DNA of 64,000 nucleotides, from the NCBI GenBank assembly GCA_021735445.1, contig JAIPHA010000001.1, forward strand, positions 24,396-88,395. The letters are read 5' to 3'. Positions within the stretch are counted from its first letter, which is position 1. Each line of letters starts with the position of its first letter. The position numbers and the translations under genes are program-made. The stretch comes from Candidatus Omnitrophota bacterium (GTDB taxonomy: Bacteria; Omnitrophota; Gorgyraeia; Duberdicusellales; 4484-171). The notes beneath the pieces were generated by a model. That model was not told the DNA's origin. It made no database searches and saw only the letters and a list, made by a program, of their open reading frames with translations. This document shows positions 3,595 to 60,617 of this stretch, one piece after another.

Positions 3595-3596
3595 AA

Positions 3597-12969: not shown

Positions 12970-12984
12970 GCAGGGGTAAGACGT

Positions 12985-18211: not shown

Positions 18212-18236
18212 ATAGAGATAAAGAGGTGTCCTGAGT

Positions 18237-18734: not shown

Positions 18735-18741
18735 TTTTACA

Positions 18742-19821: not shown

Positions 19822-19847
19822 ATTACTATAGAAAAGGGAGGTAGGTT

Positions 19848-20510: not shown

Positions 20511-20513
20511 AAT

Positions 20514-21566: not shown

Positions 21567-21570
21567 AAAA

Positions 21571-23049: not shown

Positions 23050-23064
23050 AATTAAAAAAAAGAA

Positions 23065-45652: not shown

Positions 45653-45681
45653 TTGACAAAAAATAGGAAAAGAGATATGAT
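45653..45681 (+). promoter_or_regulatory. sigma70-like promoter candidate, TTGACA-17 nt-TATGAT
   Basis: A consensus -35, a 17-nt spacer and a near-consensus -10, lying 32 nt upstream of the 45713 ATG (Wzm-like gene). Confidence 0.4.
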
Positions 45682-46492: not shown

Positions 46493-49400
46493 AAGCAGTA
46501 AATTTAGATAATATTTGGGAGAAATACCGGATTAAATTCGTTAAAGAAAACGGAGTTAGCTGGCGGGAGGTTTGGGCTCTTAGGGAAGTCAATTTTGCGG
46601 TTGAGCAAGGAGAGGTCTTAGGAATAATCGCCCAAAACGGCGCAGGTAAGACAACTTTATTAAAAATTATAGCCGGGATGTTGATGCCGGATCGCGGCAA
46701 AGTCAATGTCAGGGGAAAAGTTTCTACCTTAATGGAATTAGGGGCCGGCTTTAACCGTGAATTTACCGGCCGGGAAAATATTATTCTTAATGCCCGGATT
46801 TATGGATTGAGCAAAAAAGATATCAACATAAAGATGCAAGAGGTTATTGAATTTGCCGGATTGGGAGAGTTTATTGACGCGCCGATTAAGTATTATTCGC
46901 AAGGAATGTACCTGCGCCTTGCTTTTTCTTTAGCTATTTCTCTTGATCCCGATATTCTCTTGATAGATGATATTATCGCTGTAGGCGATGAAGCTTCTTC
47001 TTGCCGCTGTATCGATAAAATAAGGCAATTAAAAAAAGAGGGTAAGACAATAATTTTGGTTACTCATCAGATGGATATGGTGGCTCAGATGTGCGACCGG
47101 GTGATTCATCTAAATAAAGGAAAAATTATCGATGCGGGAAGTCCGGGAAAAATTATTCCGGCCTATCTGGAAACCGTAGGCAGAAAGGAAGGGATAAAAG
47201 TTTTTGAAAAATATGATTTTCGGGTTGTTTTTAACAACGGACGGTTAAGCTTATCTTATGCCGGTAATCCTTTGACCGGTAAAATGGGAGTGTCTGCGGT
47301 TTGGTTTAACCCCCGGATTAATGGCTGGGTAAGTTCAAAGGATTTAAATTGGCAAAATATAGCCAAAGATAATGCTAGTTTTATTTTTGAAGGCAGCCAT
47401 CAGGGTTTCGATAGCCTGCAGGTTTGGACAATTAGTTTAGAGAAAGATATTTTGGAATGGACAGTTAAATTTGAAGGCAAAGAAATTCAAAATCCTCATT
47501 TTGATCTCGGGTTTAGGGCCTTATATGACCATTGGGTGGTTGAAAAAAAAGAAGAAGAATTTCTTCCTTTTCTTTCTAAACTTAATTGGCAGGATTTGGG
47601 TACCCATGATTGTTTTTTTGGAGGCGTGGGCATGTTTTCTTCTCAAAAATCAGGCAGCTTGCCGGCATTTATTTTTGGTCAAAAAAAGCAAGCTCAAAAA
47701 ATCAAATTATTTAATACCGGCTACCATAATGAAACCAGAGTGGCCCAATCTTTACTTGATTCTAATTGTGCTGAATTTTATATTAGGTTATTTTCCCAAA
47801 AAAGAAATTTACTCAAATACATGGAGAAGAAGAAAAAAGAACTTCCCGCTTCATATAGATTCTGCCGGTTGGAGTATAAACATCTTCGAATAGAAGCAAG
47901 CGGACGAGAAAAAACAATAAAAATTTATTATCGAGGCAGGGAAGTTACTGCCGGCTGCGGCATGTCTGTATCTTTTCAGAGAAAAGAAGAATGGTATAGC
48001 GCCGTAAGTGCCAGGTGGAAGCTTGTTCAAAAAGAGGATTGTATTCAGGGGGAATTATTTTGGCCCGATTTTAGGCTTCGCCAGGTGTGGGAAATTAGTA
48101 TCAAAGAAGGAGGAGTATGTTGGAAGGCGGATATCGATACAGCTAAGATTAACGAGATAGACGATTTTAAAATGGGAATATTGGTAAGAGAAGAGTATAA
48201 AAGGTATGTTTCCGGACACCAGGAAGGCGTTTTCCCCAAAGATTTTACCAACTGGATGGATATCGACTTAGAAGATAAAAAAGCTGAGCATTTAGGAACT
48301 AACGCTAGCGGTGATTTACCGGGGATTATTTTAACTAATAAAGGCAGATGGATGAATGTCGTTGAAAATAGCGATAAAAAAAACCGCTGCCGGGCTTTGC
48401 AATTTAGGTTACCTTTTCGAAATTTTAAAGAGAAAGGATTTTCCACTGAGATTAATATTTTTAAAGATAATTTATTTGCGGGCAAATGCGTCGAAGAAAA
48501 AAAACCATTTTGGCCTTCCAATTTAGTTTCTGTATCCGCGGCAGCCGTTAAAGTGGGTATTGATTTAGATGCGAAAAAAATAAGATTGTTTTATCAAGGC
48601 CGGGAAATCAGCGAAAGGGCTTGTTTGCGTAACCATTTATTGATTTCGGAAAAAGGGTTTGAGTCACGGTTTATGGGTTGGCAAGTTGAGCAGATATCAA
48701 AAGATAAAGCAGTGTTAACCATGAGTATAAAAAATTTTCCCGTAGTTGAAAGATGGGAGTTTTTTTGCGGAGAAGATAATTCTTTAAAAATCAGGATAGA
48801 TTTAGAAGTTGGAAAAAAAGTAAGGATAATCGATAATGGCTTAAGCCTGGAGCTTAAAGACGGTTATCAAAGTTGGTTTACCGCCGGCGAAAAGGGAGAC
48901 TTTATTGCTAAAAAATATGAAAATGATACCGGCGCCATCCGGATGAAAGATAGTAATGTCTCGGCTATTTGCTTAAAGTCCGGTGAGAGTAAAAATTTCC
49001 CCGATTTGACTTTTGCTTTTAATCCTTCTTGCCAGGATAGAATTATTAATTTGTACAAAAAGAGGCCGGGAAATGACTATGGCTCTTCAATTGGCATATA
49101 TACAGCAAAATTATCGACCAGAAAAAAATCTTTTTTTAAGCCGGGTAGTTACAATTTATTAGAAGGTAAGATGTTTTTTGGGAAACAACCGGGATTAAGC
49201 AGTTTTCAAAAGAAAACCAATAAAGTTAAACTAGCCAGGCCGGGTTTGGAGTTGAATTTTTACCAAGGGAAAGGGAGGTTATATTGGAAGGGAAAAGAGA
49301 TAACAGCAGGTTTAGGGATCTATAGCTGCTTTTGCCATTTTGGAATTTGGCATGATTCTTCTCTTGCTGCCTGGGAAGTAATAGAGCAAAATCGGGATAA

Positions 49401-49869
49401 TTTGAGCCTGGCAGGCGATTGGGCCCACCTTCCTGTTTCTCAGGTGTGGAAGATAAAACTAAGAGAAGATAAGCGAATAATTTGGGAGGTAGAAACTGAA
49501 GTCCATCAAGAGTTAGAGTTGGAGGCAATACAAAATAATCTTATGGTTTCACCTCTATATAAAGAGTGGGCGGCGCCTGGCTTTAGCCGGGGTGAATTTA
49601 GCGAGATTTTTACCGGTAGTTATGATATATTGCCCTTTAGGGCCTGGAGCGGGCCGGCTGACAAACTATTAGTTAAAAGCAGAGAGTTACCTGATTTGAG
49701 TTTTAGGCGGGATAAAACAAGCGGGGGGCTGCAAGGGCTTTTAGAAAATAGTGATTATTTTTACCGGTCTCGTTTGATTCAGTACCAACAGATTGGTGTC
49801 GAAAAATTGAAGCCGGGTAAATATAGTAATTTTAAAGGAGTGGTTGAAATTGAGCCGAAAGAAAATTAA
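46489..49869 (+). CDS. Wzt/TagH-like ABC ATPase with an about 870-aa C-terminal extension of four tandem repeat domains
   Basis: Walker A AQNGAGKTT, signature YSQGMYLRLAF (the Wzt/KpsT YSxGM type), Walker B ILLIDDIIAVGD and H-loop VTHQ, followed by four repeats of about 200 aa each. Confidence 0.8.
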   Translation: MKAVNLDNIWEKYRIKFVKENGVSWREVWALREVNFAVEQGEVLGIIAQNGAGKTTLLKIIAGMLMPDRGKVNVRGKVSTLMELGAGFNREFTGRENIILNARIYGLSKKDINIKMQEVIEFAGLGEFIDAPIKYYSQGMYLRLAFSLAISLDPDILLIDDIIAVGDEASSCRCIDKIRQLKKEGKTIILVTHQMDMVAQMCDRVIHLNKGKIIDAGSPGKIIPAYLETVGRKEGIKVFEKYDFRVVFNNGRLSLSYAGNPLTGKMGVSAVWFNPRINGWVSSKDLNWQNIAKDNASFIFEGSHQGFDSLQVWTISLEKDILEWTVKFEGKEIQNPHFDLGFRALYDHWVVEKKEEEFLPFLSKLNWQDLGTHDCFFGGVGMFSSQKSGSLPAFIFGQKKQAQKIKLFNTGYHNETRVAQSLLDSNCAEFYIRLFSQKRNLLKYMEKKKKELPASYRFCRLEYKHLRIEASGREKTIKIYYRGREVTAGCGMSVSFQRKEEWYSAVSARWKLVQKEDCIQGELFWPDFRLRQVWEISIKEGGVCWKADIDTAKINEIDDFKMGILVREEYKRYVSGHQEGVFPKDFTNWMDIDLEDKKAEHLGTNASGDLPGIILTNKGRWMNVVENSDKKNRCRALQFRLPFRNFKEKGFSTEINIFKDNLFAGKCVEEKKPFWPSNLVSVSAAAVKVGIDLDAKKIRLFYQGREISERACLRNHLLISEKGFESRFMGWQVEQISKDKAVLTMSIKNFPVVERWEFFCGEDNSLKIRIDLEVGKKVRIIDNGLSLELKDGYQSWFTAGEKGDFIAKKYENDTGAIRMKDSNVSAICLKSGESKNFPDLTFAFNPSCQDRIINLYKKRPGNDYGSSIGIYTAKLSTRKKSFFKPGSYNLLEGKMFFGKQPGLSSFQKKTNKVKLARPGLELNFYQGKGRLYWKGKEITAGLGIYSCFCHFGIWHDSSLAAWEVIEQNRDNLSLAGDWAHLPVSQVWKIKLREDKRIIWEVETEVHQELELEAIQNNLMVSPLYKEWAAPGFSRGEFSEIFTGSYDILPFRAWSGPADKLLVKSRELPDLSFRRDKTSGGLQGLLENSDYFYRSRLIQYQQIGVEKLKPGKYSNFKGVVEIEPKEN

Positions 49870-50260
49870 AGAAGCTGAAATATTTAAGAATCAGTTAAGA
49901 GTTAATTTTAAAGATAAAGCAATCCATATTTTTTGGCAAGGGAATAAGATAACTGAAAAAATAGGCCTAAATTCAGCGATAAGTACTTTTGGCCTATGGA
50001 CTAATTCTTCTTTTGCCGAATGGGAGGTAGTTGGCAGCGGCGAGAGCTGGATGAAATTAAAAGCCAGATGGAGTTATCTGCCGGTTATCCAATATTGGTC
50101 TCTAAAATTAGGCGATAATTATCAGATTGATTTAGAGATAGATATGGAGGTAGAGGAAGAGCTTTGTATTAAAGAGACTAAGCTATTGTTGTTGGTTTCT
50201 CCGCTTTATAAAAACTGGTTTAGCGGGTTTAGGGAGGAAAATTTTCCTCAGCTTAACGGT
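47230..50260 (+). repeat. five tandem divergent copies (about 0.55-0.65 kb each) of a protein-domain-coding repeat spanning the Wzt 3' region and the next gene's 5' end
   Basis: Visible by eye in the translations (FYQGREI..., LYWKGKEITAG..., IFWQGNKITEK... and recurring W-E-V/I...LPV-Q-W-I-L blocks). The copies are diverged at the nucleotide level. Confidence 0.55.
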
Positions 50261-52114
50261 TGGCAAGAGTTGTATAATTTTAGAGGCCACTCTGTTTTAA
50301 CCGGTGTGCGTTTTCCTCTTGACGGCGCGGTTCTTCCTCCGGTAGCTTTAGAATTTAAGCCTAAGAAGGGCTTAGAAAATTATACTTTTATCGAGAATCC
50401 TTCCGCGGAAATAAATACGCGTTTTCTGGGTGAAAAAATATTATTTAAGGGCAAGGAAAGGTATTTTTCTCCCGGATATCATAGCTGGTTTAGGACAAAA
50501 ATTAAAGTATTTGAAACTGAACAAGAAGTTAGCCGGTATATCGAGAGGCAGCGGAAGAAGTATTTTAGGAAAAAGAAACAAAATGTTTTAAAAAATAAAC
50601 CTTTAAATTATAAGCCTGCTGAGAAAGTGTTGTTAGCAAATATGCCTTGGCAGGATAAGGCGCGTCAGGGGGTGCGGTCGGGATCGCGTTGGCCGCATAT
50701 GAAAGATAAAAGCGAAGGCAAATATTTGCCTTTTCCTTTTTTTTTAGCCTATAGCGCTTCTTTATTAAGGGCTAATGGGGTTAAGACGGATTTAATCGAT
50801 GCGATTGCAGAAAGAATGCAATCTGATGATTTTATCGAAACTCTTGCCGGTAAAAATATCGATTACTTGGTTGTAGAGACTTCGGTCCCTTCTTTTGATT
50901 ATGACATTAAATTATTGGAGAGAATTTCTTTATTGGGGATTAATATTATTTTATGCGGCCCTCATCCTTTGATAGCCTCTTCTGATTTTTTAGCTGAAAA
51001 TGATTTTATTGATTTTGTTATTTTTGGCGAATATGAAGTTACTCTGCTTGAGCTGCTTAAGTTTTTTTCTAAAAATGACAAAGATTTTTCCTCGATTAAA
51101 GGCTTGGTTTGGCGCAGGAGAAGCGGAGAGGTGGTAAAGAATGAAGCCAGGCCGCCTTTTGACATAAATATTTTGCCTTGGCCGCATCGGGAAAGTTTGC
51201 CGATGGAAAATTATTGGGACCTTCCCGGAGATATTCCTTATCCTTCGGTTCAGATGGTCGCATCCCGGGGATGCCCTTTTGGCTGTAATTTCTGCCTCTG
51301 GCCGCAAGTGCTTTTTGGAGGCAGCAGTTATCGGATTAGGAATATTAAAGATTGTATTGATGAGATGGAGTTTATGGTGAGAAAAAAGGGTTACAAATCA
51401 GTATATTTTGACGATGACACTTTTAATATCGGGAAAAGAAGGATGATTGAATTTTGTAATGAGATAATTAAAAGAGGGTTGGAAGATACCCCTTGGGCGA
51501 TTATGGCCAAGGCTGACCTGATGGATGAAGAAATTTTAGATAATATGAAAAAAGCCGGATTGTGCGCTGTAAAATATGGGGTAGAAAATGCCGAACAAAG
51601 TTTAGTTGACCGGTGCGGCAAGGGATTGGATTTAGCTAAAGCAAAAAGGATGATTGATTACACTAAAAGCTTGGGGATTAAGGTGCATCTTACTTTTTCT
51701 TTTGGCTTACGCGGCGAAACTAAAGAGACTATTGAAAAGACTATCGATTATGCCTTGAAATCAGACCCTGATTCGATACAGTTTTCCATAATCACTCCTT
51801 TTCCGGGGACACGGCTTTTTGAGGAATTGGAAAAGGAAGGAAAAATTTTAACCAGGGATTGGTCTTTATATGACGGGCATAACAGCTGTGTGTTTGCGCC
51901 CGATAACCTTTCCTGGCAGGATTTAAAAGATGCTAAAGATTACGCTTATAGGCTATGGGCTGATTGGCAGATGCGCAAAAGAGGCTGGCGGGGGAATCTT
52001 AATAGATTTTATAATTACAGTAAGTCCGGCGGGGTAAAAAAAGCTTTGTTAAAGAGCGGAAAATATTTAGGCTATCTTGTTTTCAAGCGAAGAAAATTTA
52101 TGGGAAAAATTTAA
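49844..52114 (+). CDS. B12-binding radical SAM protein with an N-terminal copy of the Wzt repeat domain
   Basis: The N-terminal approximately 150 aa are homologous to Wzt repeat 4 (LVSPLYKNWFSGF versus MVSPLYKEWAAPGF). They are followed by a B12-binding-like domain and VASRGCPFGCNFC. Confidence 0.7.
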   Translation: MKLSRKKIKEAEIFKNQLRVNFKDKAIHIFWQGNKITEKIGLNSAISTFGLWTNSSFAEWEVVGSGESWMKLKARWSYLPVIQYWSLKLGDNYQIDLEIDMEVEEELCIKETKLLLLVSPLYKNWFSGFREENFPQLNGWQELYNFRGHSVLTGVRFPLDGAVLPPVALEFKPKKGLENYTFIENPSAEINTRFLGEKILFKGKERYFSPGYHSWFRTKIKVFETEQEVSRYIERQRKKYFRKKKQNVLKNKPLNYKPAEKVLLANMPWQDKARQGVRSGSRWPHMKDKSEGKYLPFPFFLAYSASLLRANGVKTDLIDAIAERMQSDDFIETLAGKNIDYLVVETSVPSFDYDIKLLERISLLGINIILCGPHPLIASSDFLAENDFIDFVIFGEYEVTLLELLKFFSKNDKDFSSIKGLVWRRRSGEVVKNEARPPFDINILPWPHRESLPMENYWDLPGDIPYPSVQMVASRGCPFGCNFCLWPQVLFGGSSYRIRNIKDCIDEMEFMVRKKGYKSVYFDDDTFNIGKRRMIEFCNEIIKRGLEDTPWAIMAKADLMDEEILDNMKKAGLCAVKYGVENAEQSLVDRCGKGLDLAKAKRMIDYTKSLGIKVHLTFSFGLRGETKETIEKTIDYALKSDPDSIQFSIITPFPGTRLFEELEKEGKILTRDWSLYDGHNSCVFAPDNLSWQDLKDAKDYAYRLWADWQMRKRGWRGNLNRFYNYSKSGGVKKALLKSGKYLGYLVFKRRKFMGKI

Positions 52115-52118
52115 CTAA

Positions 52119-55100
52119 ATGGAATATTGGGATAAATTATTTGCGGCAATAGAAGAAGGCAGCGGCCGCCTTTGCGGGCCGCATACTTTACAAATTGACC
52201 TTACCGATAGGTGCAACAACGATTGTATAGGCTGTTGGGTCCACTCTCCTTTATTAGATAAAAAAGAAATTTTTCCAAATGGCAAAAAGGACCTCCCGTT
52301 TAGCCAGGTAAGGCATTTGATAGAAGACAGCGCTAAATTAGGAGTTAGAGAAATTATTCTTTCCGGTTCGGGAGAGCCTTTTCTTTATCCGGAGATAGAA
52401 GAAGTAATAAAGTTGATAAAAAACCGTGGAATTTATTTAAATATTATTACCAATGTTTTATTAATGGAGGAAAAGCTAGCCGAGCTATTAGTTAAATATC
52501 AAGTTGATTTGATAACCGCAAGCATTTGGGCTGGAAGCCCTGAAATTTATTCTTTGACTCATCCCGGCAAAAAAGAGAAAGATTTTTGGAAAATTAAAAA
52601 AAATTTATTAAAGTTAGCTTACTATAAGAAAAAATATAAATCATTATCGCCGCATTTAAAAATATACAATGTAATTTGCAGTAAAAATTATAGCGATCTG
52701 GAGGCAATGGTAGAGTTTGCTAAAGCTAGCGACAGTGACTCGGTAGAGTTTCAGGTTGTCGATATTATTCCCGGCCGGACCGATTCTTTAGCCTTAGACA
52801 GAAAACACAAGGAAGAAATAACTAATCAGCTGAAAAAAATAAGGCAGAAAGAGGAGATGGTATTTTTCAACTTTCCTCGGGATGTTGACTTAGAAGAGTT
52901 AATCGAAAAAGAAAATCTTGATTTTGGCAAAGTTTGGAAAAACAGAAAAAAAGGTTTTAGCGCTAAACAACTGCCTGATTCCTTGGTTTGCCCCAAAGGT
53001 TATCAGATTGATGAGCAACGGGAAATCGTTTCTGAGTCTATTTCTGTTACTGAGACAAAACCGGCTGTGTTTTGGTATAAATTTAAAAGCGATTTTTGCA
53101 ATAGTTGTGAAGATAACAACAGCTGCCTGGCTCGAGATAAAGCAATTAGCGTAAAGCTTCTTAGTATTTTGGGGATAGGCACTTTGTTAAGAAGAATATT
53201 TCGTTCTGATTTAGAAAAAGGTATTTATGAAAAACAAATTAATTATTTTCCTTGTTATATCGGTTGGTATTATGCCCGGATTTTAACCGACGGGACTATA
53301 ACGCCTTGTTGTAAAGCAGTCAATTTTCCTTTAGGTAATATCGGCAAAGATTCTTTTTTTAATACCTGGAACTCGCCGGCTTACAATGAATTTAGAAAAA
53401 AAGCTAAGGATTTAAATAAAAGCGACCCATACTTTGCCTCGATAGATTGCCTAAGGAGTTGTGATAATTGGGGGATGAATCTTACGGTAGGCAAAAGGCT
53501 AAAACAATTTAAAAACATCAATCCTTTAATAGTTAAAAATCAAGGCCAAAGGATAGTTATACTCGCGAAAAGTTTTACGGCCGGAAATCTTAATATCGGA
53601 GATCATAACTTTGGCAAAAATATAGTTGTAGACGGAGGCCAAAAAGAAGGCTTTGCCCGTTATCTGTTTAAGGTGCGGCAAGCAAAGAATTTTGAGTTGT
53701 GGGCTCGTTATGCTAGTGGAAGTTTTCGCCCGGTAGATATTTATATCGACGGAAAAATAGTTAAAAAGTCTGGGCTGAGTGAAATAACCGGGGGGTGGAC
53801 GGTTAATTATTTGAAATGGAATAAAGAAGCGGAAGTTAAATTAACTGAAGGAGAACACATTTTAGAGATAAGCTCAAAACAATGTATCCCTCATATTGAA
53901 CAATTAGGGTTATTCGAAACGGGAGCGTTACCCCGTCAGTTAAAGAAGGAAAGCAAAGCCGGTTATTGGCGGATGTTTAGCGAACATATTCTTGATAAAG
54001 GCTTGGCCGGCGCCTTAAGGAGAGTGCTTGATAATCTCGCTCCGGATCAGATTAAAGACCGTTATCTGGAGATGCTAGGCATTTATGACCGGCGGTATGG
54101 TTATAAAGGCCCTTTTCATCTACAGATAGATTTAACTAATGATTGCAATAACAATTGTATTGCTTGTTGGTGCAACTCTTCGCTTTATAAAAAGCCGCGT
54201 TTGTCTAAAGAAGAAAAAAAACAATACCTTCCCTTTAGGTTAGTTAAAGAGCTTTTAGATGATGCTTCTCGAATGGGGGCAACCGAGGTATATTATTCCG
54301 GGTCAGGAGAACCTTTTATGCATCCCCGAATTATGGATATTTTAGAGTATACTAAAAAAAAGGGGTTAATTTGCCATGTAAATACTAATTTTACTCTCCT
54401 AAATAAAGAAAGGCTGGACCGCCTTATCAAGATAGGCTTGGATTACCTGACAGTAAGCACCTGGGCCGGAAGCAAAGAGATATATGCCAAGACTCACCCT
54501 AATAAAACCGAATCCGAGTTTGAGAAAATAAAAGATAATCTTATTTATCTTAACAAAAACAAAAAATGTGCCCCCTCAATTAAGCTTTATAATGTGCTTT
54601 TTAATATGAATTATTTTGAAATTGATAAGATGATTGAGTTTGCGAAAAAAACCGCTTCGGAGTCGGTGGAGTTTACTTTAGTCGACACTATCCCCGGTGT
54701 TACCGACGTGTTAGCTTTAGGCGAGAGCCAGTTAAAGGAGCTTAAAAGAAGATGTGAGGATATTCAATATAAGTTAGAGCAGGAAAGTAAACTAAAAGGA
54801 AGCAGTTTGACCCTTTTTCAGTTTGATCAGTTTTTACGGCGAGTTTCGAATTCGGCCGATGCCAAACAGGCAAAATATGATAAAGGGGTAATCGATAGCA
54901 TGCCTTGTTATATTGGTTGGCTTTTTGCCCGGATAGTGCCTAACGGAGAGGTCCATTCCTGCTTAAAAGCGCACCGGATACCGACCGGTTCTTTATACTC
55001 TAAAAAGTTTTCAGAGATTTGGAATTCGCCTCAGCAAGCTAATTTTCGAAAAAAAACCTGTGTTTACCGTAAAGATGACCCTTTTTTTAGATTAATTGGC

Positions 55101-56378
55101 AATGATCCGGAAACAAAGGAAGCGGGGTGCTATAAAAGCTGTGACGATATTGGCAGGAACAGCTGGATGCATAAAAGAATGACGATGTTGACCCGGCCGG
55201 AAAAAGCTTTTTTAAAAGTTGCCGCTAAGGGCTTAAAATTGGCCAGGAAGATTAATCTGCCTCGAAAGACTTCTTTAAGACAAGGTAAGAATCTCCGCAT
55301 CGCGGGGATTCGGCAGGGGCGTCAAGCTTTTCAAGGGCCTGAACAGGTAGTGGTTGATTTAACCAATAGATGTAATTTGCGTTGCCTGTCTTGTTGGCTC
55401 TATTCTCCTTTGCTTGCCGGAAGCCAACCATCTTATGATTCATTAAATCAAGAGTTACCCGGGAAGAAGGTGTTTAAACTTATTGATGATTTAGCCTCTA
55501 TGGGCACCGAACGGATACGTTTTACCGGGGGAGGAGAGCCTCTTATCCATAAAGATTTTTTTCGCTTAGTTGAATATGCGCATAAGCGGGGATTATTGGT
55601 AGGGGTTACCACTAATTTCGGCTTAATTGATAAAAAGGGAATTTCCAGGCTTGTAAACGCAGGTTTAGAAGAGTTGTGCATTAGTATTTGGGCCTCTAAC
55701 CTTGGTACTTATTGTAAGGTTCACCCGGGGACTGATTCCCGCTATTTTGAAAAACTAAAAAATAATTTAGCTTACTTACAAAAAATGAAAACAGGTAAAC
55801 CGCGGATTACTTTTGCTAATGTAATTATGAATAAAAATGTTAACGATTTTACGGAGATGTATAATTTCGGGCGTAAATTCGGGGCAGATGCTTTGTATTT
55901 TACTATAGTAGATATTTTATCCGGCCAGACCGATTCTCTTTTGTTAAATCCCAAACAGCGGGATCAGCTAAAAGCAGAAGCCTTAGCGGTTGAAGAAAAA
56001 GCCGGTAGAGAGGGGATAGAATTAGAGTTTTTTGAAGGGTTTATGAATAGGTTGGACCAAGATAAAGAAGATTTTCAAAAAGGAGAATATGATAAATCTT
56101 TAGTCAACCAGATACCTTGTTATGTGGGATGGATATTTTCCCGTATTTTGGCCGATGGGAGCATAGCGCCTTGCTGCAGGGGGGTTAAGAAGATAATGGG
56201 AAATATTAATAAAGAAAGTTTTAAAAATATATGGTTTTCGGATAAATACAATGAATTTAGGGCTAAAGCTAAATATTTATCCAAACAAGATAGTTATTTT
56301 AAAGAAATAGGCTGCACTAAAGAGTGTGATAATCTTATGCATAATCAGGAAATGGAGAGAAGGATTTTAGAAGGGTGA
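52119..56378 (+). CDS. triple radical SAM/SPASM fusion protein (1419 aa) with an inserted beta-sandwich (CBM-like) domain
   Basis: Three colinear units carry CNNDCIGC, CNNNCIAC and CNLRCLSC. Each is followed by SGSGEP or GGGEP and a SPASM-like C-Y-I/V-G-W...PCC/SC...C...C block. The insert lies at about aa 470-620. Confidence 0.75.
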   Translation: MEYWDKLFAAIEEGSGRLCGPHTLQIDLTDRCNNDCIGCWVHSPLLDKKEIFPNGKKDLPFSQVRHLIEDSAKLGVREIILSGSGEPFLYPEIEEVIKLIKNRGIYLNIITNVLLMEEKLAELLVKYQVDLITASIWAGSPEIYSLTHPGKKEKDFWKIKKNLLKLAYYKKKYKSLSPHLKIYNVICSKNYSDLEAMVEFAKASDSDSVEFQVVDIIPGRTDSLALDRKHKEEITNQLKKIRQKEEMVFFNFPRDVDLEELIEKENLDFGKVWKNRKKGFSAKQLPDSLVCPKGYQIDEQREIVSESISVTETKPAVFWYKFKSDFCNSCEDNNSCLARDKAISVKLLSILGIGTLLRRIFRSDLEKGIYEKQINYFPCYIGWYYARILTDGTITPCCKAVNFPLGNIGKDSFFNTWNSPAYNEFRKKAKDLNKSDPYFASIDCLRSCDNWGMNLTVGKRLKQFKNINPLIVKNQGQRIVILAKSFTAGNLNIGDHNFGKNIVVDGGQKEGFARYLFKVRQAKNFELWARYASGSFRPVDIYIDGKIVKKSGLSEITGGWTVNYLKWNKEAEVKLTEGEHILEISSKQCIPHIEQLGLFETGALPRQLKKESKAGYWRMFSEHILDKGLAGALRRVLDNLAPDQIKDRYLEMLGIYDRRYGYKGPFHLQIDLTNDCNNNCIACWCNSSLYKKPRLSKEEKKQYLPFRLVKELLDDASRMGATEVYYSGSGEPFMHPRIMDILEYTKKKGLICHVNTNFTLLNKERLDRLIKIGLDYLTVSTWAGSKEIYAKTHPNKTESEFEKIKDNLIYLNKNKKCAPSIKLYNVLFNMNYFEIDKMIEFAKKTASESVEFTLVDTIPGVTDVLALGESQLKELKRRCEDIQYKLEQESKLKGSSLTLFQFDQFLRRVSNSADAKQAKYDKGVIDSMPCYIGWLFARIVPNGEVHSCLKAHRIPTGSLYSKKFSEIWNSPQQANFRKKTCVYRKDDPFFRLIGNDPETKEAGCYKSCDDIGRNSWMHKRMTMLTRPEKAFLKVAAKGLKLARKINLPRKTSLRQGKNLRIAGIRQGRQAFQGPEQVVVDLTNRCNLRCLSCWLYSPLLAGSQPSYDSLNQELPGKKVFKLIDDLASMGTERIRFTGGGEPLIHKDFFRLVEYAHKRGLLVGVTTNFGLIDKKGISRLVNAGLEELCISIWASNLGTYCKVHPGTDSRYFEKLKNNLAYLQKMKTGKPRITFANVIMNKNVNDFTEMYNFGRKFGADALYFTIVDILSGQTDSLLLNPKQRDQLKAEALAVEEKAGREGIELEFFEGFMNRLDQDKEDFQKGEYDKSLVNQIPCYVGWIFSRILADGSIAPCCRGVKKIMGNINKESFKNIWFSDKYNEFRAKAKYLSKQDSYFKEIGCTKECDNLMHNQEMERRILEG

Positions 56379-56411: not shown

Positions 56412-59150
56412 ATGGAACTTAAAGATAAAAGAACAGAGAAAGAAAGCAGTTTTAAACCGGCTTTTATTCAGATAGACTTTCAGATTACCGCTAAATGCAA
56501 CGCTAAATGTATGTTTTGCCAGTGTTGGCGGGATAGCGCTAATCTTGGCGCTAAGGATTTACCGGGAGAAAAATGGATAGAGTCTGCTCAAAAGTTAAAA
56601 GATTTTACTAATCTGGATTTGGTTTGCATTGGGGGCGGCGAACCCTTGCTTTATCCGCATCTTTTTCAGGTGTTAAAGGGGCTGCGCCGCCTGGAAATAC
56701 CTTCTGTGGTAGTCACCAACGGGAGCCTCTTTTCAGAGGAGAATTGCAAAAAAATTATTGATTCAGGGGTAGGGCATATTGATTTTTCTCTGGATTCTTT
56801 TTCTGAGAAGCATAACCGGATGCGTGGATTTCCCGGATTGTTTGAAAAGTGCTGTGAAGCGATGGATACTTTAAAAAGAATTTCTCCCAAGATAAGCCTG
56901 GGGGTATCTACTTTAATTTGCGGGGAAAATATTTCTGAATTACCTGAGTTTACTGAATGGAGTTTAGGCAATTTACCGATTGATGCTATCAATTTTCAGG
57001 CTTACAACCAGGTCGTGGATTATTCCGGCAATAATTGGTGGGAAAAATCACTTTTATGGCCAAAGAATAGAGAAACCGTAATTAGAGTAATGGATTGTCT
57101 GATAAAAAAAGGAGAAGAAGGAGCAAGGATAGCCAATAATCCCATTCAGCTGGAGAAATTTAAAAGGTATTTTCTAAATCCGGAAAGTAAACTTAATATA
57201 AAATGCCCGGCCGGAGCTTTTAATTTTTCTGTTAGCCATCAGGGTAATATAATCGGATGTATCGCAGAATCGCCGCTGGGAAATATTAAAGAGAGTAATC
57301 CTGTCGATGTATACAAGCAAAAATTCGGCAATATTAGGCAGAAAGCCAGCCAGTGCAAGGAAAACTGCCATTTTTTAATTAACTGTTATTTTCCTCTTCA
57401 TTGGAAGCGCTGGAATAGTATAGTCAAAGATATGGTAAAAGAAGGCGAGGAGGATTATAAGCCGGGTAAGGTGATTTTGCCTCCGGAGATAAAAGAAATT
57501 ACTTCTGTCCCGGTTGAGGGGTATCCGGATTTAATCAATCATAAAGACTATAGCCATTTGGATTCAATCGGAAAATATAAAGATAGCTTTGAAAACAGAA
57601 AGATGCCCTGTACTCCGGAAGGTTTGCCCCAAATTTACCTTTGCGGGGATAGTTCGGAGGTTCACCGCTGGGGAGTGGATTTAGAAGAAAATGATTTTTT
57701 TAAGCAGTTAGATAAGCTTAAACAGTTATCCCGAGAGAAGTTGGTATATCATACGGTAGTTGGAGTAAGGAGGACGAATTTTTACCGTTTAGGGAAAATA
57801 TATAATTTGATAAGAAGAGTGAAGGAAGAAAAGGAAGTTGATTTTCCCAAGTTCAACATTAAACCGTTTAAAGACGTAAAAGAACGGTTTTACCGGTATT
57901 TAACTGTGATAAATAGCTTTACAAAGAAAGAGGGAGTAGAATTCAGGATAACAGACAAGCGGTTGGATCAATTGTTAGGCATTATTGAAGAAAGCCAAAA
58001 ACAAAAAGGTTTAGAAGAAAATGATTTTTGGCGCGCTTTGGGCCCGGTATGCAAGGATGCGTTTATTGGACCGCGTTTTATTTTGCTTGATTTAGCCGGC
58101 CGTTGCAACCTTGATTGCGTCTATTGTAGAAGATTCTCTCCTTGGAATAAAGAATATTGGCGGAAGCAGCATCCGGAGCTTTCCGGGTTTATAGATTTTG
58201 AGGTTGTTAAAAATGTGCTTTTAGACGCTAAGGAGATGGGGGTAGAAACAGTGCTTTTGGTAGGAGGCGGAGAGCCGACTCTTCATCCTAAATTTAAAGA
58301 AATAATTGAGCTTATCAGCAAATTGGGAATGAAGTTTAATTTTTCCACCAACGGAGTTTTGCTGGGTTTATATAATAATTATTTAGTAGACGGCCATTGT
58401 GACAGCGTTACCGTTAGCCTTTCTTTTGCCAGCAAAAAATCATTTTCTTCTATCCGTCCGACTTCTAATAGCAAGGTTATGAAAAATATAGAAAAAAATG
58501 TAAAAAAATTAGCAAAATTAAAGGCGAGCCGAAAAGCTGCCTATCCCGGGATTATTGCTTTGTATGCTATTTGTAAATATAATTATAAAGAGATTTTAAA
58601 GATGGTAGCTCAGGCAAAAAAAATAGGCGCAGATACGATATGGTTTCAGTTGACTCATTTAGAAGATTTCAGCCGGGACAAGCTTTATATTGAAGCTAAG
58701 GAGATGGAAAAGGTAAAAGAGTTATTGAGCCGGGCAAAAGCTCTTGCTCAGAAAAAAGGATTGTCTTTTAATTCGTTTATCGAATTTGAGATGAATCATT
58801 ATGACCAAAAACGGGGCGATTGGTCTAAGAAGGGATTGTTGAAGCAAGGCTGTTTTGTCGGCTGGCATTTTTCTTTTATTCATCTAAGGCAGGAAGTTTT
58901 TATGTGCTGCGGGGCCAAAACCGTGGGTATTTTAGATAAAGGAGGAAGAGGCTTTAAAGACCTTTGGTTTTCCGATGCATATCGCCGCTACCGCAATGAC
59001 GGCCTTATAATGCATAGAGAAAATCCTCTTACCATCTATGGTAAACCTTTGTATGAAAAATATTGTGATTCCTGTGACAACCATGACCAAAATACGAAAA
59101 TGTTAAAGTTGATAAAAAAATATAAGTTAGCTGAATTTGTGCAGCGGTGA
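56412..59150 (+). CDS. double radical SAM fusion protein (912 aa)
   Basis: Unit 1 has CNAKCMFC with GGGEPLL and a CPAG...GCIA...CKENCH cluster. Unit 2 has CNLDCVYC with GGGEPTL and GCFVGW...MCCG...CDSCDNHD. A strong SD (AAGAGGAG) precedes the gene. Confidence 0.75.
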   Translation: MELKDKRTEKESSFKPAFIQIDFQITAKCNAKCMFCQCWRDSANLGAKDLPGEKWIESAQKLKDFTNLDLVCIGGGEPLLYPHLFQVLKGLRRLEIPSVVVTNGSLFSEENCKKIIDSGVGHIDFSLDSFSEKHNRMRGFPGLFEKCCEAMDTLKRISPKISLGVSTLICGENISELPEFTEWSLGNLPIDAINFQAYNQVVDYSGNNWWEKSLLWPKNRETVIRVMDCLIKKGEEGARIANNPIQLEKFKRYFLNPESKLNIKCPAGAFNFSVSHQGNIIGCIAESPLGNIKESNPVDVYKQKFGNIRQKASQCKENCHFLINCYFPLHWKRWNSIVKDMVKEGEEDYKPGKVILPPEIKEITSVPVEGYPDLINHKDYSHLDSIGKYKDSFENRKMPCTPEGLPQIYLCGDSSEVHRWGVDLEENDFFKQLDKLKQLSREKLVYHTVVGVRRTNFYRLGKIYNLIRRVKEEKEVDFPKFNIKPFKDVKERFYRYLTVINSFTKKEGVEFRITDKRLDQLLGIIEESQKQKGLEENDFWRALGPVCKDAFIGPRFILLDLAGRCNLDCVYCRRFSPWNKEYWRKQHPELSGFIDFEVVKNVLLDAKEMGVETVLLVGGGEPTLHPKFKEIIELISKLGMKFNFSTNGVLLGLYNNYLVDGHCDSVTVSLSFASKKSFSSIRPTSNSKVMKNIEKNVKKLAKLKASRKAAYPGIIALYAICKYNYKEILKMVAQAKKIGADTIWFQLTHLEDFSRDKLYIEAKEMEKVKELLSRAKALAQKKGLSFNSFIEFEMNHYDQKRGDWSKKGLLKQGCFVGWHFSFIHLRQEVFMCCGAKTVGILDKGGRGFKDLWFSDAYRRYRNDGLIMHRENPLTIYGKPLYEKYCDSCDNHDQNTKMLKLIKKYKLAEFVQR

Positions 59151-59159
59151 TAAACAATT

Positions 59160-60617
59160 ATGGCAGTTAACAATGATCCAGCTAGAAAAGTTTTGATAGC
59201 GGTATGCCCGATGTGGGACATAAGATGGCCGCCTCTGGGGTTAAGCTATTTGGCTTCTTATCTTGAGAGCCAGGGTATTGCCGTTGATATTTTAGATATA
59301 AATATAGATGTTTATTCAAATTCGTCCACCGAGCGAAAAGAACTTTGGAGGATGGAGAGTTATAATCATTGGTTTTTTGAAGATAAATTCGAACGATTGG
59401 CTTTTCAGGATCAGATAGACCAATATGCGCAAAACATTTTAGATAAGGGTTATCAAGTAGTAGGTTTTTCTTTATATGCGGCTAATATTTTATTTTCGGT
59501 TAAACTGGCTACTATTTTAAAAAAAGCAAACCCCGAGCTATTCATTATCTTCGGCGGGCCGGCTTGCTGGTTCCTTCACGACCATCCTAAGATGCCTATC
59601 CAATATATGGTTTCACCTAAAACCAGCGAATCCTTCATTGAACCCGGCGTGGTAGATGTTTTTGTAAGAGGAGAAGGGGAAGAGGCGGCTAAAAGGGTAA
59701 TACTATCACATTTTAATAGTTATAAAGACAAGGTTCCCGGCACAGTAGTTTATTCGCAAGGAAGATATATTATCCAGGAGCCGCCGCAGCGGATAAATGA
59801 CTTAGATAAATTACCCTATCCGGATTGGGAAAGGGTTTCCCTGGACCTCTACCGGGAAGAGATAGGGGTGCCGATATTATTTAGCAGGGGGTGTGTTAAC
59901 AGATGCGCTTTTTGTATTGATTGGAAAATCTGGCAGAAAAAATACCGGGTTAGGTCCGCCGAAAATATTTTTCAGGAAATGAGGGAAGTAGTAGAAAAAT
60001 ATAAGGTGAATGTATTTGTATCCAATGATTTATTGTTTAACGCAAGATTAGATGTATTGGAAGATTTAGCCGGCTTTATTATAAATTCGGGATTAAAGAT
60101 ATCCTGGAATGTCCAGGGGTTGATAAGGGCGGACATGGGGTTTCCTTTATTAAGAAAAATGCGGGTAAGCGGCCTTGAGAGGGTGACTTATGGAGTTGAG
60201 AGTTTATCTGACAAAGTGCTTAAAGATATGGGGAAGCCGTATAATTTTTCCGATATTCAAAAGGTATTAAGAAACAGCAAAAAAGCCGGAATTGTTACCG
60301 CTTTTAACCTTATTGTGGGTTTTCCGACAGAAAGTGAAAAGGATTTTATCCAAACAAAAGAAAGGCTGGCTTTGATAAAAGATGATGTTGACATGATAGC
60401 CGGATTACAGGGTTGCGGCTTAAAAGACGGTTCTGATATATATATGCATCCTGAAAAATATTCTATTTTACCGGAGCTAAAAAATGATTTTTGGAAAAGC
60501 CTGAGAGGGAATAATAATTTAGAAGTCAGACAAAGAAGGATTAATGAGTTGTCTGATTTTGCTCAAAAATTAGGTTTAAAGATTGAATTTAAAGGGATTC
60601 CCGCTCCAAGCAGTTAA
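59160..60617 (+). CDS. B12-binding-domain radical SAM protein
   Basis: N-terminal KVLIAVCPMWD...LGLSYL...VVGFSL (B12-binding-like), then FSRGCVNRCAFC. Confidence 0.7.
   Translation: MAVNNDPARKVLIAVCPMWDIRWPPLGLSYLASYLESQGIAVDILDINIDVYSNSSTERKELWRMESYNHWFFEDKFERLAFQDQIDQYAQNILDKGYQVVGFSLYAANILFSVKLATILKKANPELFIIFGGPACWFLHDHPKMPIQYMVSPKTSESFIEPGVVDVFVRGEGEEAAKRVILSHFNSYKDKVPGTVVYSQGRYIIQEPPQRINDLDKLPYPDWERVSLDLYREEIGVPILFSRGCVNRCAFCIDWKIWQKKYRVRSAENIFQEMREVVEKYKVNVFVSNDLLFNARLDVLEDLAGFIINSGLKISWNVQGLIRADMGFPLLRKMRVSGLERVTYGVESLSDKVLKDMGKPYNFSDIQKVLRNSKKAGIVTAFNLIVGFPTESEKDFIQTKERLALIKDDVDMIAGLQGCGLKDGSDIYMHPEKYSILPELKNDFWKSLRGNNNLEVRQRRINELSDFAQKLGLKIEFKGIPAPSS

Follow-up and report, generated by a model that had tools for sequence, protein, structure and literature searches.

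The radical SAM enzyme BtrN, a 2-deoxy-scyllo-inosamine dehydrogenase, contains a Twitch domain (PDB 4m7t/4m7s), and the sugar-nucleoside enzymes BlsE and DesII (PDB 7vob, 8hzv) act as a radical SAM decarboxylase and a deaminase-dehydrogenase, respectively. All characterized sugar-acting radical SAM enzymes of the Twitch or related types, as established for BtrN, DesII and BlsE, work on small molecules, and no radical SAM enzyme is known, also from the literature searched, to have demonstrated activity on a polysaccharide polymer. In proteusin clusters such as that for polytheonamide (PoyB/C/D), many radical SAM enzymes, including B12-dependent ones, remodel one polymer, which can serve as an analogy only. 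A polypeptide with two radical SAM domains is known from FbiC, the fused CofG/CofH FO synthase (PMC11917521). Here, we describe a 1419-aa Omnitrophota protein, which combines three different radical SAM units with one carbohydrate-binding-type module. The analysis suggests, without proving it, that radical chemistry remodels a cell-surface sugar polymer.

Three homologous radical SAM units in one polypeptide

The window, the whole 64,000-nucleotide stretch of DNA analysed, contains an open reading frame with an ATG start at positions 52119..56378, which, like all features described here, lies on the + strand. It encodes unit 1, a CBM6/35-like module, unit 2 and unit 3, in this order. Pfam detected three Radical_SAM stretches (E 6.8e-52) and three SPASM stretches (E 1.9e-33) in the protein, confirming the three-unit reading frame described in an earlier note on this DNA. 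The 1419-residue protein is soluble and has no TM-like segment. When aa 1-470, 638-1030 and 1031-1419 were aligned with one another, the units proved 36-40% identical, and 61 columns were invariant, among them CX3CX2C, G-GEP and the block PCY-GW...C...C-x3-CD. The motifs quoted in the note are all present, except that unit 3 reads VVVDLTNRCNLRCLSCW and not LQIDLT. The CX3CX2C motifs of all three units and all auxiliary cysteines are 100% conserved in 64 orthologs, a degree of conservation that is far beyond chance.

Unit 1 (aa 1-470; 52119..53528) consists of a radical SAM core, a Cys-rich insertion and a Twitch-like auxiliary domain. Its radical SAM cluster motif, C32-x3-C36-x2-C39 (52212..52235), is invariant in the 64 orthologs, and the Twitch-like auxiliary-cluster domain (53226..53483) has the pattern C379-x12-G-x4-C397 C398 ... 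C444-x3-C448. The unit-1-specific insertion of around 85 aa (aa ~250-340; 52866..53138) carries four conserved cysteines, C291 and C327-x2-C330-x5-C336; this CX2CX5C motif sits upstream of the hairpin and recurs in all units of the U1 type, even in distant ones and in those that belong to other architectures. The insertion is a candidate for an extra Fe-S site; it had not been mentioned in the earlier note.

Unit 2 (aa 655-1030; 54081..55208) contains the radical SAM cysteines C676/C680/C683 and a Twitch-like domain with C930, C948, C1004 and C1008, and it is the most conserved of the units (57-70% identity between orthologs). The corresponding residues of unit 3 (aa 1031-1419; 55209..56375) are C1085/C1089/C1092 and C1334, C1352, C1353, C1399 and C1403. 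All three units possess the first SPASM half-motif, CX9-15GX4C, whereas the second, CX2CX5CX3C, is reduced to C-x3-C. Since only four auxiliary-domain cysteines are conserved in units 2 and 3, with a fifth in unit 3 only, these parts are BtrN-like Twitch half-domains rather than 7-Cys SPASM domains, and four conserved cysteines would be enough for one auxiliary cluster. The SPASM-like blocks reported before are reflected in the PCY-GW block and the Pfam SPASM matches, but units 2 and 3 are of the Twitch type. The best solved match of the unit 3 auxiliary domain is the Twitch domain of BtrN (E 3.5e-4); the first two ligand cysteines align, and the C-x3-C and C-x2-C pairs are adjacent.

By sequence, unit 3 is closest among solved structures to MoaA, followed by the sugar-acting enzymes BlsE and BtrN. 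In the fold search with the unit 2 model, BlsE was the top match (E 4.3e-13) and DesII the fourth; however, the peptide-modifying enzymes PqqE, SuiB, CteB and anSME rank about level with them, and SkfB and ChlB are likewise among the top matches, so the fold does not discriminate between sugar- and peptide-acting relatives. The triple-rSAM protein could accordingly be a peptide or protein maturase, either of the RiPP type (PqqE, sactisynthases, SuiB) or anSME-like, with a ribosomal peptide or a protein encoded elsewhere as its substrate; the CBM-like module would then bind a glycosylated peptide or mediate protein-protein interaction. Most characterized SPASM/Twitch radical SAM enzymes do modify peptides, and the units weakly match NCBIfam peptide-maturase models, but all of these models score far below their cut-offs. 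None of the units passed any curated NCBIfam cut-off; the best model, TIGR04317, scored 102-114 bits, whereas its cut-off is 380. Together with the genomic context described below, this makes a maturase function unlikely.

A CBM6/CBM35-like module between units 1 and 2

The segment that separates unit 1 from unit 2 (NIGDHNFGKNIVVDGG...RYASGSFRPVDIYIDG..., aa ~473-600; 53535..53918) forms a beta-sandwich of the CBM6/CBM35 fold. A helical linker (aa ~601-654; 53919..54080) connects it to unit 2; in the model, residues 141-159 of the module are helical, with a lower pLDDT. In a Foldseek search of the PDB with the AF2 model (pLDDT 89.4), the top 50 matches were all CBM35 or CBM6 domains, with TM scores of 0.66-0.79 (normalised to the target) and 2w47 as the best match (E 2.4e-9). 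A profile search against PDB sequences also retrieved CBM6E and CBM35 chains (E 2e-4 to 2e-2). Pfam CBM_6 was matched by 10 of 32 orthologous inserts (best E 4.7e-6), but not by the window's own copy, for which no Pfam match was obtained even at E<=10. The earlier note had named non-homologous units and an insert devoid of beta-sandwich or CBM similarity as findings that would speak against it; the units are homologous, and its assignment of the insert to the CBM6/35 type holds.

Conservation across 201 copies of the domain is highest at R537, W560 and H592; of these, the tryptophan and arginine align with TGxW and xRP in the CBM35 chains 2w47 and 2vzp. R537, W560 and P591-H592 may form a putative binding site. 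In place of the canonical region-C Asn of CBM6/35 domains, the module seems to have an invariant His (P-H-I-E/D), and the canonical N-terminal Glu, a Ca2+ ligand, seems to be replaced by Lys; carbohydrate binding by the module is therefore not guaranteed. The module is present in 54 of 64 full-length orthologs at 30-50% identity, cleanly absent in the other 10 and duplicated in one (P0009). It is a discrete unit of the protein and, given its recurrent loss, single doubling and a variant in which the protein is split, an accessory one, which is not essential as the enzyme is kept in the 10 orthologs lacking it. Elsewhere, members of this CBM subfamily occur in fusions with PMT_2, GT1 and GH123 proteins, and the subfamily most commonly accompanies PSCyt/PSD1 planctomycete proteins, whose function is unassigned.

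The dispensability of the module would fit with units that belong to the glycan pathway but have soluble nucleotide sugars or lipid-linked monosaccharides as substrates rather than a polymer, with the CBM-like module serving only to dock the enzyme to the assembly/export complex or to sense the product. The nearest structures, BtrN, DesII and BlsE, belong to enzymes with small-molecule substrates, and genes for nucleotide-sugar enzymes are numerous in the window: an epimerase/dehydratase, three DegT proteins, a transketolase pair and an NTP-transferase. However, a CBM6/35-type module with a conserved aromatic and basic site typically recognizes polymers or oligomers, fusions of U2-type units to GT4 and the adjacency to an exporter place the enzymes at the stage of chain assembly, and at least 19 radical SAM domains in 64 kb exceed the needs of known nucleotide-sugar routes. 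We regard action on small molecules as a possible, though not a favored, explanation.

An exporter operon rich in radical SAM enzymes

The first gene of the operon encodes an ABC-2 (Wzm-like) permease (45713..46492), directly 5' of which lies the best sigma-70-like site (45653-45681). It is followed by a gene for a Wzt-like ABC ATPase of 1126 aa (46489..49869), with a nucleotide-binding domain similar to A. aeolicus Wzt (E 3e-62) and a C-terminal part that comprises four repeats of ~220 aa with unassigned fold. A B12-binding radical SAM protein of 756 aa (49844..52114) is a conserved upstream neighbour of the triple-rSAM gene in orthologous loci. Downstream are genes for a 912-aa protein with two radical SAM domains (56412..59150), the second of which is 27% identical to unit 3, a B12-binding radical SAM protein of 485 aa (59160..60617) and a further multi-rSAM polypeptide of more than 1123 aa (60630..64000), which runs past the end of the window. 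As judged from its translation, this last polypeptide begins with a radical SAM unit that has a Cys-rich tail, and two additional radical SAM units with CX3CX2C motifs come after it.

The window further encodes GT2, GT4, PMT_2 and Bac_transf proteins in addition to ABC2_membrane, the Wzt-like ATPase and the sugar-nucleotide enzymes. The gene order around the triple-rSAM gene is repeated in two other loci, L001 and L002; the conserved operon runs from the Wzm-like permease through the giant Wzt-like ATPase, the B12-rSAM and the triple-rSAM gene to further radical SAM genes and is flanked by glycosyltransferases. In L003, GT4::U2-type fusions adjoin a canonical Wzm/Wzt(+Wzt_C) pair. The family comprises ~70 orthologs, which stem from Omnitrophota wherever the source gives a name, and relatives contain up to five radical SAM units per chain.

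This context bears on the maturase function raised above. Glycosyltransferases, PMT_2 and B12-rSAMs are conserved neighbours in three independent loci, and the transporter is of the ABC-2/Wzt type and not a peptidase-containing peptide exporter. No precursor peptide gene was found in the operon, which lacks small ORFs and, with a gene spacing of -26 to +33 nt, has no room for one. Likewise, there is no room for an RRE/PqqD-like leader-recognition domain in the triple-rSAM protein, since the radical SAM motif starts at residue 32 and the leaders of units 2 and 3 are only ~40 aa long.

Modification of a polyprenyl carrier or of membrane-spanning lipids, with the ABC-2 transporter moving the lipid product, would be conceivable as Tes/GDGT-type radical SAM enzymes are reported in Omnitrophota-containing communities and literature mentioning both Omnitrophota and radical SAM mostly concerns lipid producers. 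The tetraether lipid synthase model NF045702 reaches 90 bits summed over the three units, which is far below its cut-off of 450; moreover, the protein is soluble without TM segments, and the CBM fold, the GT fusion and the Wzt-like nucleotide-binding domain point to carbohydrates, making a lipid substrate highly improbable.

The proposal of the earlier note that the substrate is a glycan rather than a peptide is supported by the Wzm/Wzt-type operon with its glycosyltransferases, the fusions of GT4 to unit 2 and the lack of a precursor gene or leader domain, but not by the undiscriminating fold search. Placement of the triple-rSAM enzyme in a glycan pathway is thus supported by context, yet unproven. 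It seems rather probable to us that the protein is a cytoplasmic, CBM-tethered three-unit enzyme, which tailors a surface polysaccharide before Wzm/Wzt-type export. What the analysis establishes is the domain anatomy, the conserved cluster ligands, the fold of the CBM module, the context of the operon and the fusion partners, whereas we infer that the module binds glycan and that the enzyme acts on the polymer, as well as how many clusters it has and which types of reaction it catalyses. Cytoplasmic glycosyltransferases would build a lipid-linked surface polysaccharide, and the module between units 1 and 2 would keep the enzyme attached to the growing oligo- or polysaccharide. Each of the three paralogous, distinct catalytic units would have its own [4Fe-4S] cluster for SAM cleavage and an auxiliary cluster in a BtrN-type Twitch domain, and unit 1 probably one more on its Cys...CX2CX5C insertion (~7 clusters in total). 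Hydrogen abstraction from a sugar C-H by each unit would lead to different tailoring steps before the ABC transporter exports the polymer. By analogy to BtrN, DesII and BlsE, epimerisation, oxidation to a keto sugar or deoxygenation/decarboxylation would be the likeliest steps, and the adjoining B12-rSAM enzymes would plausibly add C-methyl groups.

Comparison with known systems

The triple-rSAM protein resembles BtrN in its predicted single auxiliary [4Fe-4S] site per Twitch domain, with four cysteines in a C-x17-C...C-x2/3-C arrangement, and potentially in its substrate class, as BtrN acts on a carbohydrate-like compound. However, BtrN is a single 250-aa enzyme with a small aminocyclitol substrate, whereas three units of ~390 aa are fused here, and the two proteins are similar in sequence only within the Twitch region. 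BlsE and DesII are sugar-acting and match the fold of unit 2, BlsE also by sequence, but identity is only 13-16%, and both are single-domain enzymes for nucleotide-linked monosaccharides, lacking a CBM and a fusion. With the SPASM maturases anSME, PqqE, SuiB and CteB, the protein shares the Pfam SPASM model, the CX9-15GX4C half-motif and the overall fold; it differs from them in the shortened second half-motif, the position of CX2CX5C in unit 1, the lack of an RRE domain and a precursor peptide and the glycan-related context.

The module has the beta-sandwich fold of CBM35 and CBM6 domains, such as C. thermocellum Rhe-CBM35 (2w47), the CBM35 of CsxA (2vzp) and S. degradans CBM6E (8j3x), and the motif RYAxGxxxxRPxxIxVNG...TGxW is common to both. 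Judged by published region signatures (PMC9843283), an equivalent of the region-A Trp and the basic Arg are conserved, whereas the region-C Asn is apparently His and the window copy escapes Pfam. These CBMs usually reside on secreted glycoside hydrolases, lyases and esterases, while the module described here lies inside the chain of a cytoplasmic Fe-S enzyme. The C-terminal domain of Wzt, whose canonical form Wzt_C occurs in the related locus L003, provides a precedent from the same type of pathway: a cytoplasmic beta-sandwich that recognizes the completed lipid-linked polysaccharide. It belongs, however, to a different fold family outside the top 50 fold matches and is part of a transporter and not of a tailoring enzyme. 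FbiC makes a cofactor from small molecules, and the tailoring enzymes of proteusin clusters are individual proteins with a peptide substrate, whereas here three radical SAM units, and up to five in relatives, are joined per chain in a glycan locus.

Architecture of the triple radical SAM polypeptide

The open reading frame at 52119-56378 on the plus strand starts with ATG and encodes a protein of 1419 amino acids, in which no transmembrane-like hydrophobic window was found. The Pfam models PF04055 (Radical_SAM; 176 bits, cut-off 29.5, E 6.8e-52) and PF13186 (SPASM; 115 bits, cut-off 21.5, E 1.9e-33) each match it in three stretches, in agreement with the triple radical SAM polypeptide that an earlier note had proposed from the sequence alone. 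Based on its CX3CX2C motifs and its Pfam score, the protein can be assigned to the radical SAM superfamily. A three-way alignment of amino acids 1-470, 638-1030 and 1031-1419 revealed a mutual identity of 36-40% and 61 invariant columns; the units are thus homologous, as that note had supposed. Among the invariant columns are those of CX3CX2C, of G-GEP, which is the SAM-binding motif, and, C-terminally, of the block PCY-GW...G-x4-C...C-x3-CD. All motifs quoted in the note were found, except that unit 3 reads VVVDLTNRC where LQIDLT had been given. The cysteines of the radical SAM clusters are C32, C36 and C39 in unit 1, C676, C680 and C683 in unit 2, and C1085, C1089 and C1092 in unit 3, and all nine are 100% conserved when 64 full-length sequences are aligned with MAFFT; the other cysteine counts are based on this alignment as well. 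The units resemble one another more than they resemble any other radical SAM gene of the window, where identity does not exceed 31%. All three are real, active-looking and distinct units.

Members of the SPASM subfamily possess two auxiliary clusters and the seven-cysteine motif CX9-15GX4C...CX2CX5CX3C...C. The Twitch subfamily, as represented by BtrN and MoaA, has a truncated SPASM-like domain with one auxiliary cluster, which is fully or partly ligated by cysteines. The first half of the SPASM motif is present in the units as C-x12-G-x4-C, and its second half, CX2CX5CX3C, has shrunk to C-x3-C. The full seven-cysteine motif was found in none of the three units, which conserve only four (unit 2) or five (units 1 and 3) auxiliary cysteines. 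These residues, C379, C397, C398, C444 and C448 in unit 1, C930, C948, C1004 and C1008 in unit 2, and C1334, C1352, C1353, C1399 and C1403 in unit 3, are 100% conserved (n=64), and the four that are invariant in every unit have a BtrN-like spacing. Among PDB sequences, the unit 3 auxiliary domain is matched best by BtrN, through the Twitch domain of the latter (E 3.5e-4); ligand cysteines one and two align (SC/PC), and the CxxxC pair falls next to the CxxC pair. Since the second SPASM half is reduced and the BtrN Twitch domain is the best solved match, units 1 to 3 are read as Twitch-type units with one auxiliary cluster each. The 'SPASM-like' blocks of the earlier note are consequently borne out by the three PF13186 matches but not by the seven-cysteine motif, and the annotation can be refined in that SPASM matches in this family probably denote Twitch-type units.

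Unit 1 contains a specific insertion of around 85 amino acids (52866-53138, plus strand; aa 250-340), which is missing from units 2 and 3 and for which no Pfam match was obtained at E<=10. It harbors C291 and the motif C327-x2-C330-x5-C336, four cysteines with a conservation of 100, 100, 88 and 100%, respectively (n=64). The CX2CX5C motif lies about 50 amino acids upstream of the hairpin in every unit-1-type domain examined, including those of distant Planctomycetota and of Ca. Lernaella giants, and was never seen in the unit-2-type domains examined. We infer that the insertion holds an extra Fe-S site, which would bring the polypeptide to approximately seven clusters. The CX2CX5C motif could be a candidate for a permuted second SPASM cluster site.

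None of the units reaches a curated NCBIfam cut-off. The best model, TIGR04317 (W_rSAM_matur), scores 102-114 bits per unit against a cut-off of 380, and at such a score the role of a tungsten-cofactor maturase, which the top NCBIfam name would imply, was rejected. Per-unit scores are 57-76 against 170 for NF033640 (N_Twi_rSAM) and 49-65 against 381 for the PqqE model; the whole-protein score of 175 for NF033640, against a cut-off of 170, is an artefact of summing over three units. An AlphaFold2 model of unit 2 (pLDDT 82.9) has BlsE as its best fold match (E 4.3e-13), closely followed by PqqE, SuiB, DesII, CteB, anSME, SkfB, MoaA and BtrN. The predicted fold confirms the SPASM/Twitch subclass; the search did not tell sugar-acting and peptide-acting relatives apart, as both were found at E values of 1e-13 to 1e-10.

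A dispensable CBM6/35-like module

The segment between units 1 and 2 (aa 473-600) had been likened in the earlier note to CBM6/35-type jelly-roll modules. The window's own copy yields no Pfam match at E<=10, which is why the assignment was made via ortholog profiles and structure prediction. The segment is kept at 30-50% identity in most orthologs, and ten of 32 orthologous inserts match Pfam CBM_6 (best E 4.7e-6). An AlphaFold2 model based on a 32-sequence alignment (pLDDT 89.4) comprises nine beta-strands. Compared with the PDB by Foldseek, it has 111 matches with E<=1e-3, of which the best 50 are all CBM35 or CBM6 (E 2.4e-9 to 3.6e-5). Among the matches are 2w47 (2.4e-9), 2vzp (3.1e-8), 2cdo/2cdp, 8j3x, 4qb1 and 5fui, with a TM-score to the target of up to 0.79. 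At the sequence level, the insert profile retrieves CBM6E (E 2e-4), the CBM35 of C. thermocellum (3e-4) and the CBM35 of CsxA (0.02) from the PDB, and the motif RYAxGxxxxRPxxIxVNG...TGxW is common to the insert and CBM6/35 chains. The insert is thus predicted to adopt the CBM6/CBM35 beta-sandwich fold, and the proposed likeness stands.

Binding sites of CBM6/35 modules comprise a tryptophan in region A and an invariant asparagine in region C, to which CBM35 adds a basic arginine near region E (PMC9843283). Across 201 copies of the insert-family domain, the best-kept positions are R537 (180 copies), W560 (158) and P591-H592; at the H592 position, histidine is found in 152 and asparagine in eight of the 201 copies. 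W560 aligns with the TGxW tryptophan of 2w47 and 2vzp, and R537 with the corresponding residue of CBM35. In our reading, which refers to motif position rather than superposition, H592 occupies the place of the usual asparagine of the (P)N(I)D motif. The insert is best described as a domain of predicted CBM6/35 fold and His-variant type whose candidate binding site is conserved. When 1.84 billion representatives were searched with the profile, 1475 proteins were found at E<=1e-3. The annotation is also refined in that the insert represents a His-variant subfamily of CBM6/35, which numbers more than 1400 cluster representatives. Among the top 65 of the 1475, partner domains are PSCyt1/PSCyt2/PSD1 in 13 to 15 proteins, radical SAM/SPASM in 13, canonical CBM_6 and CBM_35 in three each, PMT_2 in two, and GT1 and GH123 in one each. 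Within the protein set P0105-P0170, the commonest carriers of the subfamily are the PSCyt1/PSCyt2/PSD1 (DUF1549/DUF1553) 'planctomycete cytochrome' proteins, which sometimes carry up to eight copies of the domain. A second CBM copy, for example in the Wzt extension, was not found in the window.

Ten of the 64 orthologs cleanly lack the module and have a linker of about 48 amino acids instead, and two orthologs, P0009 and P0105, contain two copies. In a neighbor-joining tree of the catalytic regions, every deep branch bears the module. Forms without the CBM occur in different places of the tree, each as sister to proteins that have it, which implies several independent losses. The module is accessory and dispensable, and, given its repeated loss, the pattern fits a role in targeting or affinity rather than a catalytic part. 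In a first rival reading, which is plausible, the enzyme would act on monomeric sugar precursors and the CBM module would be a docking domain.

Genomic setting and evolution of the units

The target gene comes fourth in a run of closely packed genes on the plus strand, separated by -26 to +33 nt. The run begins with an ABC-2 permease gene (PF01061; start at 45713), followed by a Wzt-like ABC ATPase of 1126 amino acids (46489-49869) and a B12-type radical SAM protein of 756 amino acids (start at 49844). Directly downstream of the target gene are genes for a two-radical-SAM protein (start at 56412), a second B12-type radical SAM protein (start at 59160) and a multi-radical-SAM protein of more than 1123 amino acids, whose reading frame (60630-64000) runs off the window end; its translation starts with a radical SAM unit with a cysteine-rich tail, followed by two further CX3CX2C units. 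Among relatives, P0094 (2344 amino acids) has five CX3CX2C motifs, and the one at 15989-22451 of the related locus L003 comprises 2742 amino acids. The permease gene is preceded at a short distance by the best sigma-70-like site of the region, in a scan that overall did not exceed shuffle expectation.

The nucleotide-binding domain of the ATPase (aa 24-255) is closest to Wzt of A. aeolicus (E 3.4e-62), followed by TarH/TagH and RfbE, and precedes four tandem repeats of around 220 amino acids each (pairwise blastp E 3e-15 to 0.09). In canonical Wzt proteins, Wzt_C is a carbohydrate-binding domain. It is absent from the window ATPase, which has the four novel repeats in its place, and present in L003. 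Neither the C-terminal extension of the ATPase nor the N-terminus of the 756-aa B12-type protein has a Pfam match. The large size of the ATPase is kept in orthologous loci (1155-1165 amino acids).

The rest of the window encodes Bac_transf, GT2 and GT4 proteins, an NTP-transferase::GT2 fusion, five PMT_2 proteins, an epimerase/dehydratase, three DegT aminotransferases, a split transketolase, a PEP mutase, an AMP-binding enzyme and a methyltransferase; three plus-strand reading frames (4531-7443, 10601-11956 and 30581-31936; 970, 451 and 451 amino acids) are without a Pfam family at E<=1e-5. The density of radical SAM genes is extraordinary: over the entire 64 kb, at least 19 radical SAM domains, stand-alone, SPASM-type, B12-type or fused, are interleaved with the glycosyltransferases and sugar-nucleotide enzymes. 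Judged by its predicted gene content, the rest of the window is a glycoconjugate super-locus, and the co-occurrence of the permease, the Wzt-type nucleotide-binding domain and the GT2, GT4 and Bac_transf proteins assigns the locus to Wzm/Wzt ABC-transporter-dependent glycan assembly.

The PEP mutase, AMP-binding enzyme and split transketolase genes lie within the glycan locus (12139-14490 and 2731-4538, plus strand). PEP mutase is an enzyme of phosphonate biosynthesis, and transketolase provides two-carbon branches in some sugar pathways; these genes hint at phosphonate-decorated or branched sugars. PMT_2 proteins are GT-C glycosyltransferases that depend on polyprenyl-phosphate sugars. At least four of their genes are located at 21571-24568, 26630-28042 and 43268-45538, and two unrelated proteins combine PMT_2 with a domain of the CBM subfamily, which suggests that glycan decoration also takes place in the periplasm.

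Approximately 70 full-length orthologs with 44-94% identity were retrieved by database search. Those for which a source gives the organism belong to Candidatus Omnitrophota/Omnitrophica, including Ca. Kaelpia, and one genome-collection record is labelled Planctomycetia; the scan of genome contigs yielded three loci, too few for a taxonomic census. The contig index has no entry for the exact window protein, and neighborhoods were drawn from the orthologs P0003, P0024, P0081 and P0105. The order of permease, giant ATPase, B12-type radical SAM protein, triple radical SAM protein, further radical SAM proteins and glycosyltransferases is kept in the orthologous loci L001 and L002, only one of which has the CBM. 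In L003, a fusion of GT4 with a unit-2-type domain is found beside a canonical Wzm/Wzt pair with Wzt_C, a further GT4, epimerases and the 2742-aa multi-radical-SAM gene.

This setting bears on the rival reading of the protein as a RiPP-type peptide or protein maturase, which would be in line with the peptide-acting fold matches of unit 2. Neither an adjacent precursor peptide gene nor an RRE/PqqD-like domain was found at the target operon: no two neighboring operon genes are separated by more than 33 nt, and some overlap, which leaves no room for a precursor gene, and the radical SAM motif begins at aa 32, leaving no room for an RRE domain, for which there is no Pfam match either. In addition, the transporter is of the wrong type, and the neighbors in L001, L002 and L003 are transporters, glycosyltransferases and radical SAM proteins. 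The proposal of the earlier note that the substrate is a glycan and not a peptide is therefore favored by the Wzm/Wzt locus and the missing precursor gene and RRE, but not by the fold of unit 2, which does not discriminate.

A recent tandem triplication of the units was ruled out because the closest relatives of each unit type lie in other architectures. Unit-2-type domains are fused to the C-terminus of GT4 glycosyltransferases in P0077, P0080 and P0081, and unit-1-type domains form the C-terminus of B12-type radical SAM giants in Planctomycetota and Ca. Lernaella. In the locus L004 (3434-8142; Logan ERR15087771 contig), unit 1 with two CBM copies (775 amino acids) and units 2 and 3 (794 amino acids) are encoded as separate proteins by genes overlapping by 4 nt, showing the point of fusion behind the CBM to be labile in evolution. 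A further rival reading, according to which the protein modifies a lipid, is disfavored: the CBM and the glycosyltransferase fusion point elsewhere, the score of the Tes model falls far short of its cut-off, and the protein is predicted to be soluble.

A possible role in surface-glycan tailoring

Taken together, the earlier interpretation is supported overall, with three refinements, namely the Twitch-type nature of the units, the extra cysteine site of unit 1 and the His-variant, dispensable character of the CBM. The best-supported reading is that the protein is a Twitch-type radical SAM enzyme of the cytoplasm, with multiple clusters and three catalytic units, which acts in an ABC-transporter-dependent surface-glycan pathway. 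The CBM6/35-like module may tether the enzyme to the nascent glycan chain, and the three units would carry out different tailoring steps, each begun by abstraction of a hydrogen atom. By analogy to BtrN, DesII and BlsE, these steps might include epimerization, oxidation, deoxygenation and decarboxylation.

It is tempting to speculate, with clearly less than even confidence, that Omnitrophota and some neighboring lineages possess a radical tailoring line for polysaccharides that acts on the polymer itself. Fused multi-radical-SAM chains with three to five SAM-radical active sites each would be tethered by internal His-type CBM6/35 modules to the nascent lipid-linked glycan and, prior to export by Wzm/Wzt, would change the stereochemistry, oxidation state and C-methylation of its sugars at the polymer level. 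If true, the surface glycans of this little-known and largely uncultured phylum could be chemically unusual and contain rare epimers, deoxy/keto sugars or C-methyl sugars, and their study would also yield biocatalysts for unactivated C-H bonds of carbohydrates.

Neither the target family nor a radical SAM enzyme with a polysaccharide substrate is described in the literature searched, and a 2026 preprint describes only the co-occurrence of radical SAM and glycosyltransferase domains in long Omnitrophota proteins. The parts of the system are of known kinds; their combination and genomic setting are new. The conserved family of about 70 orthologs, in which one chain of a polysaccharide export operon unites three radical SAM sites with a module of glycan-binding type, provides a concrete, clonable test case for whether bacteria apply radical chemistry to polysaccharides. 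To our knowledge, the radical SAM enzymes described as sugar-acting are confined to small molecules, aminoglycosides and nucleoside antibiotics for example, and radical tailoring of a polymer has been described only for peptides. If the proposed tailoring line exists, polysaccharides would for the first time be seen as targets of radical SAM chemistry, and the line would be a carbohydrate counterpart of the tailoring of proteusins such as polytheonamide.
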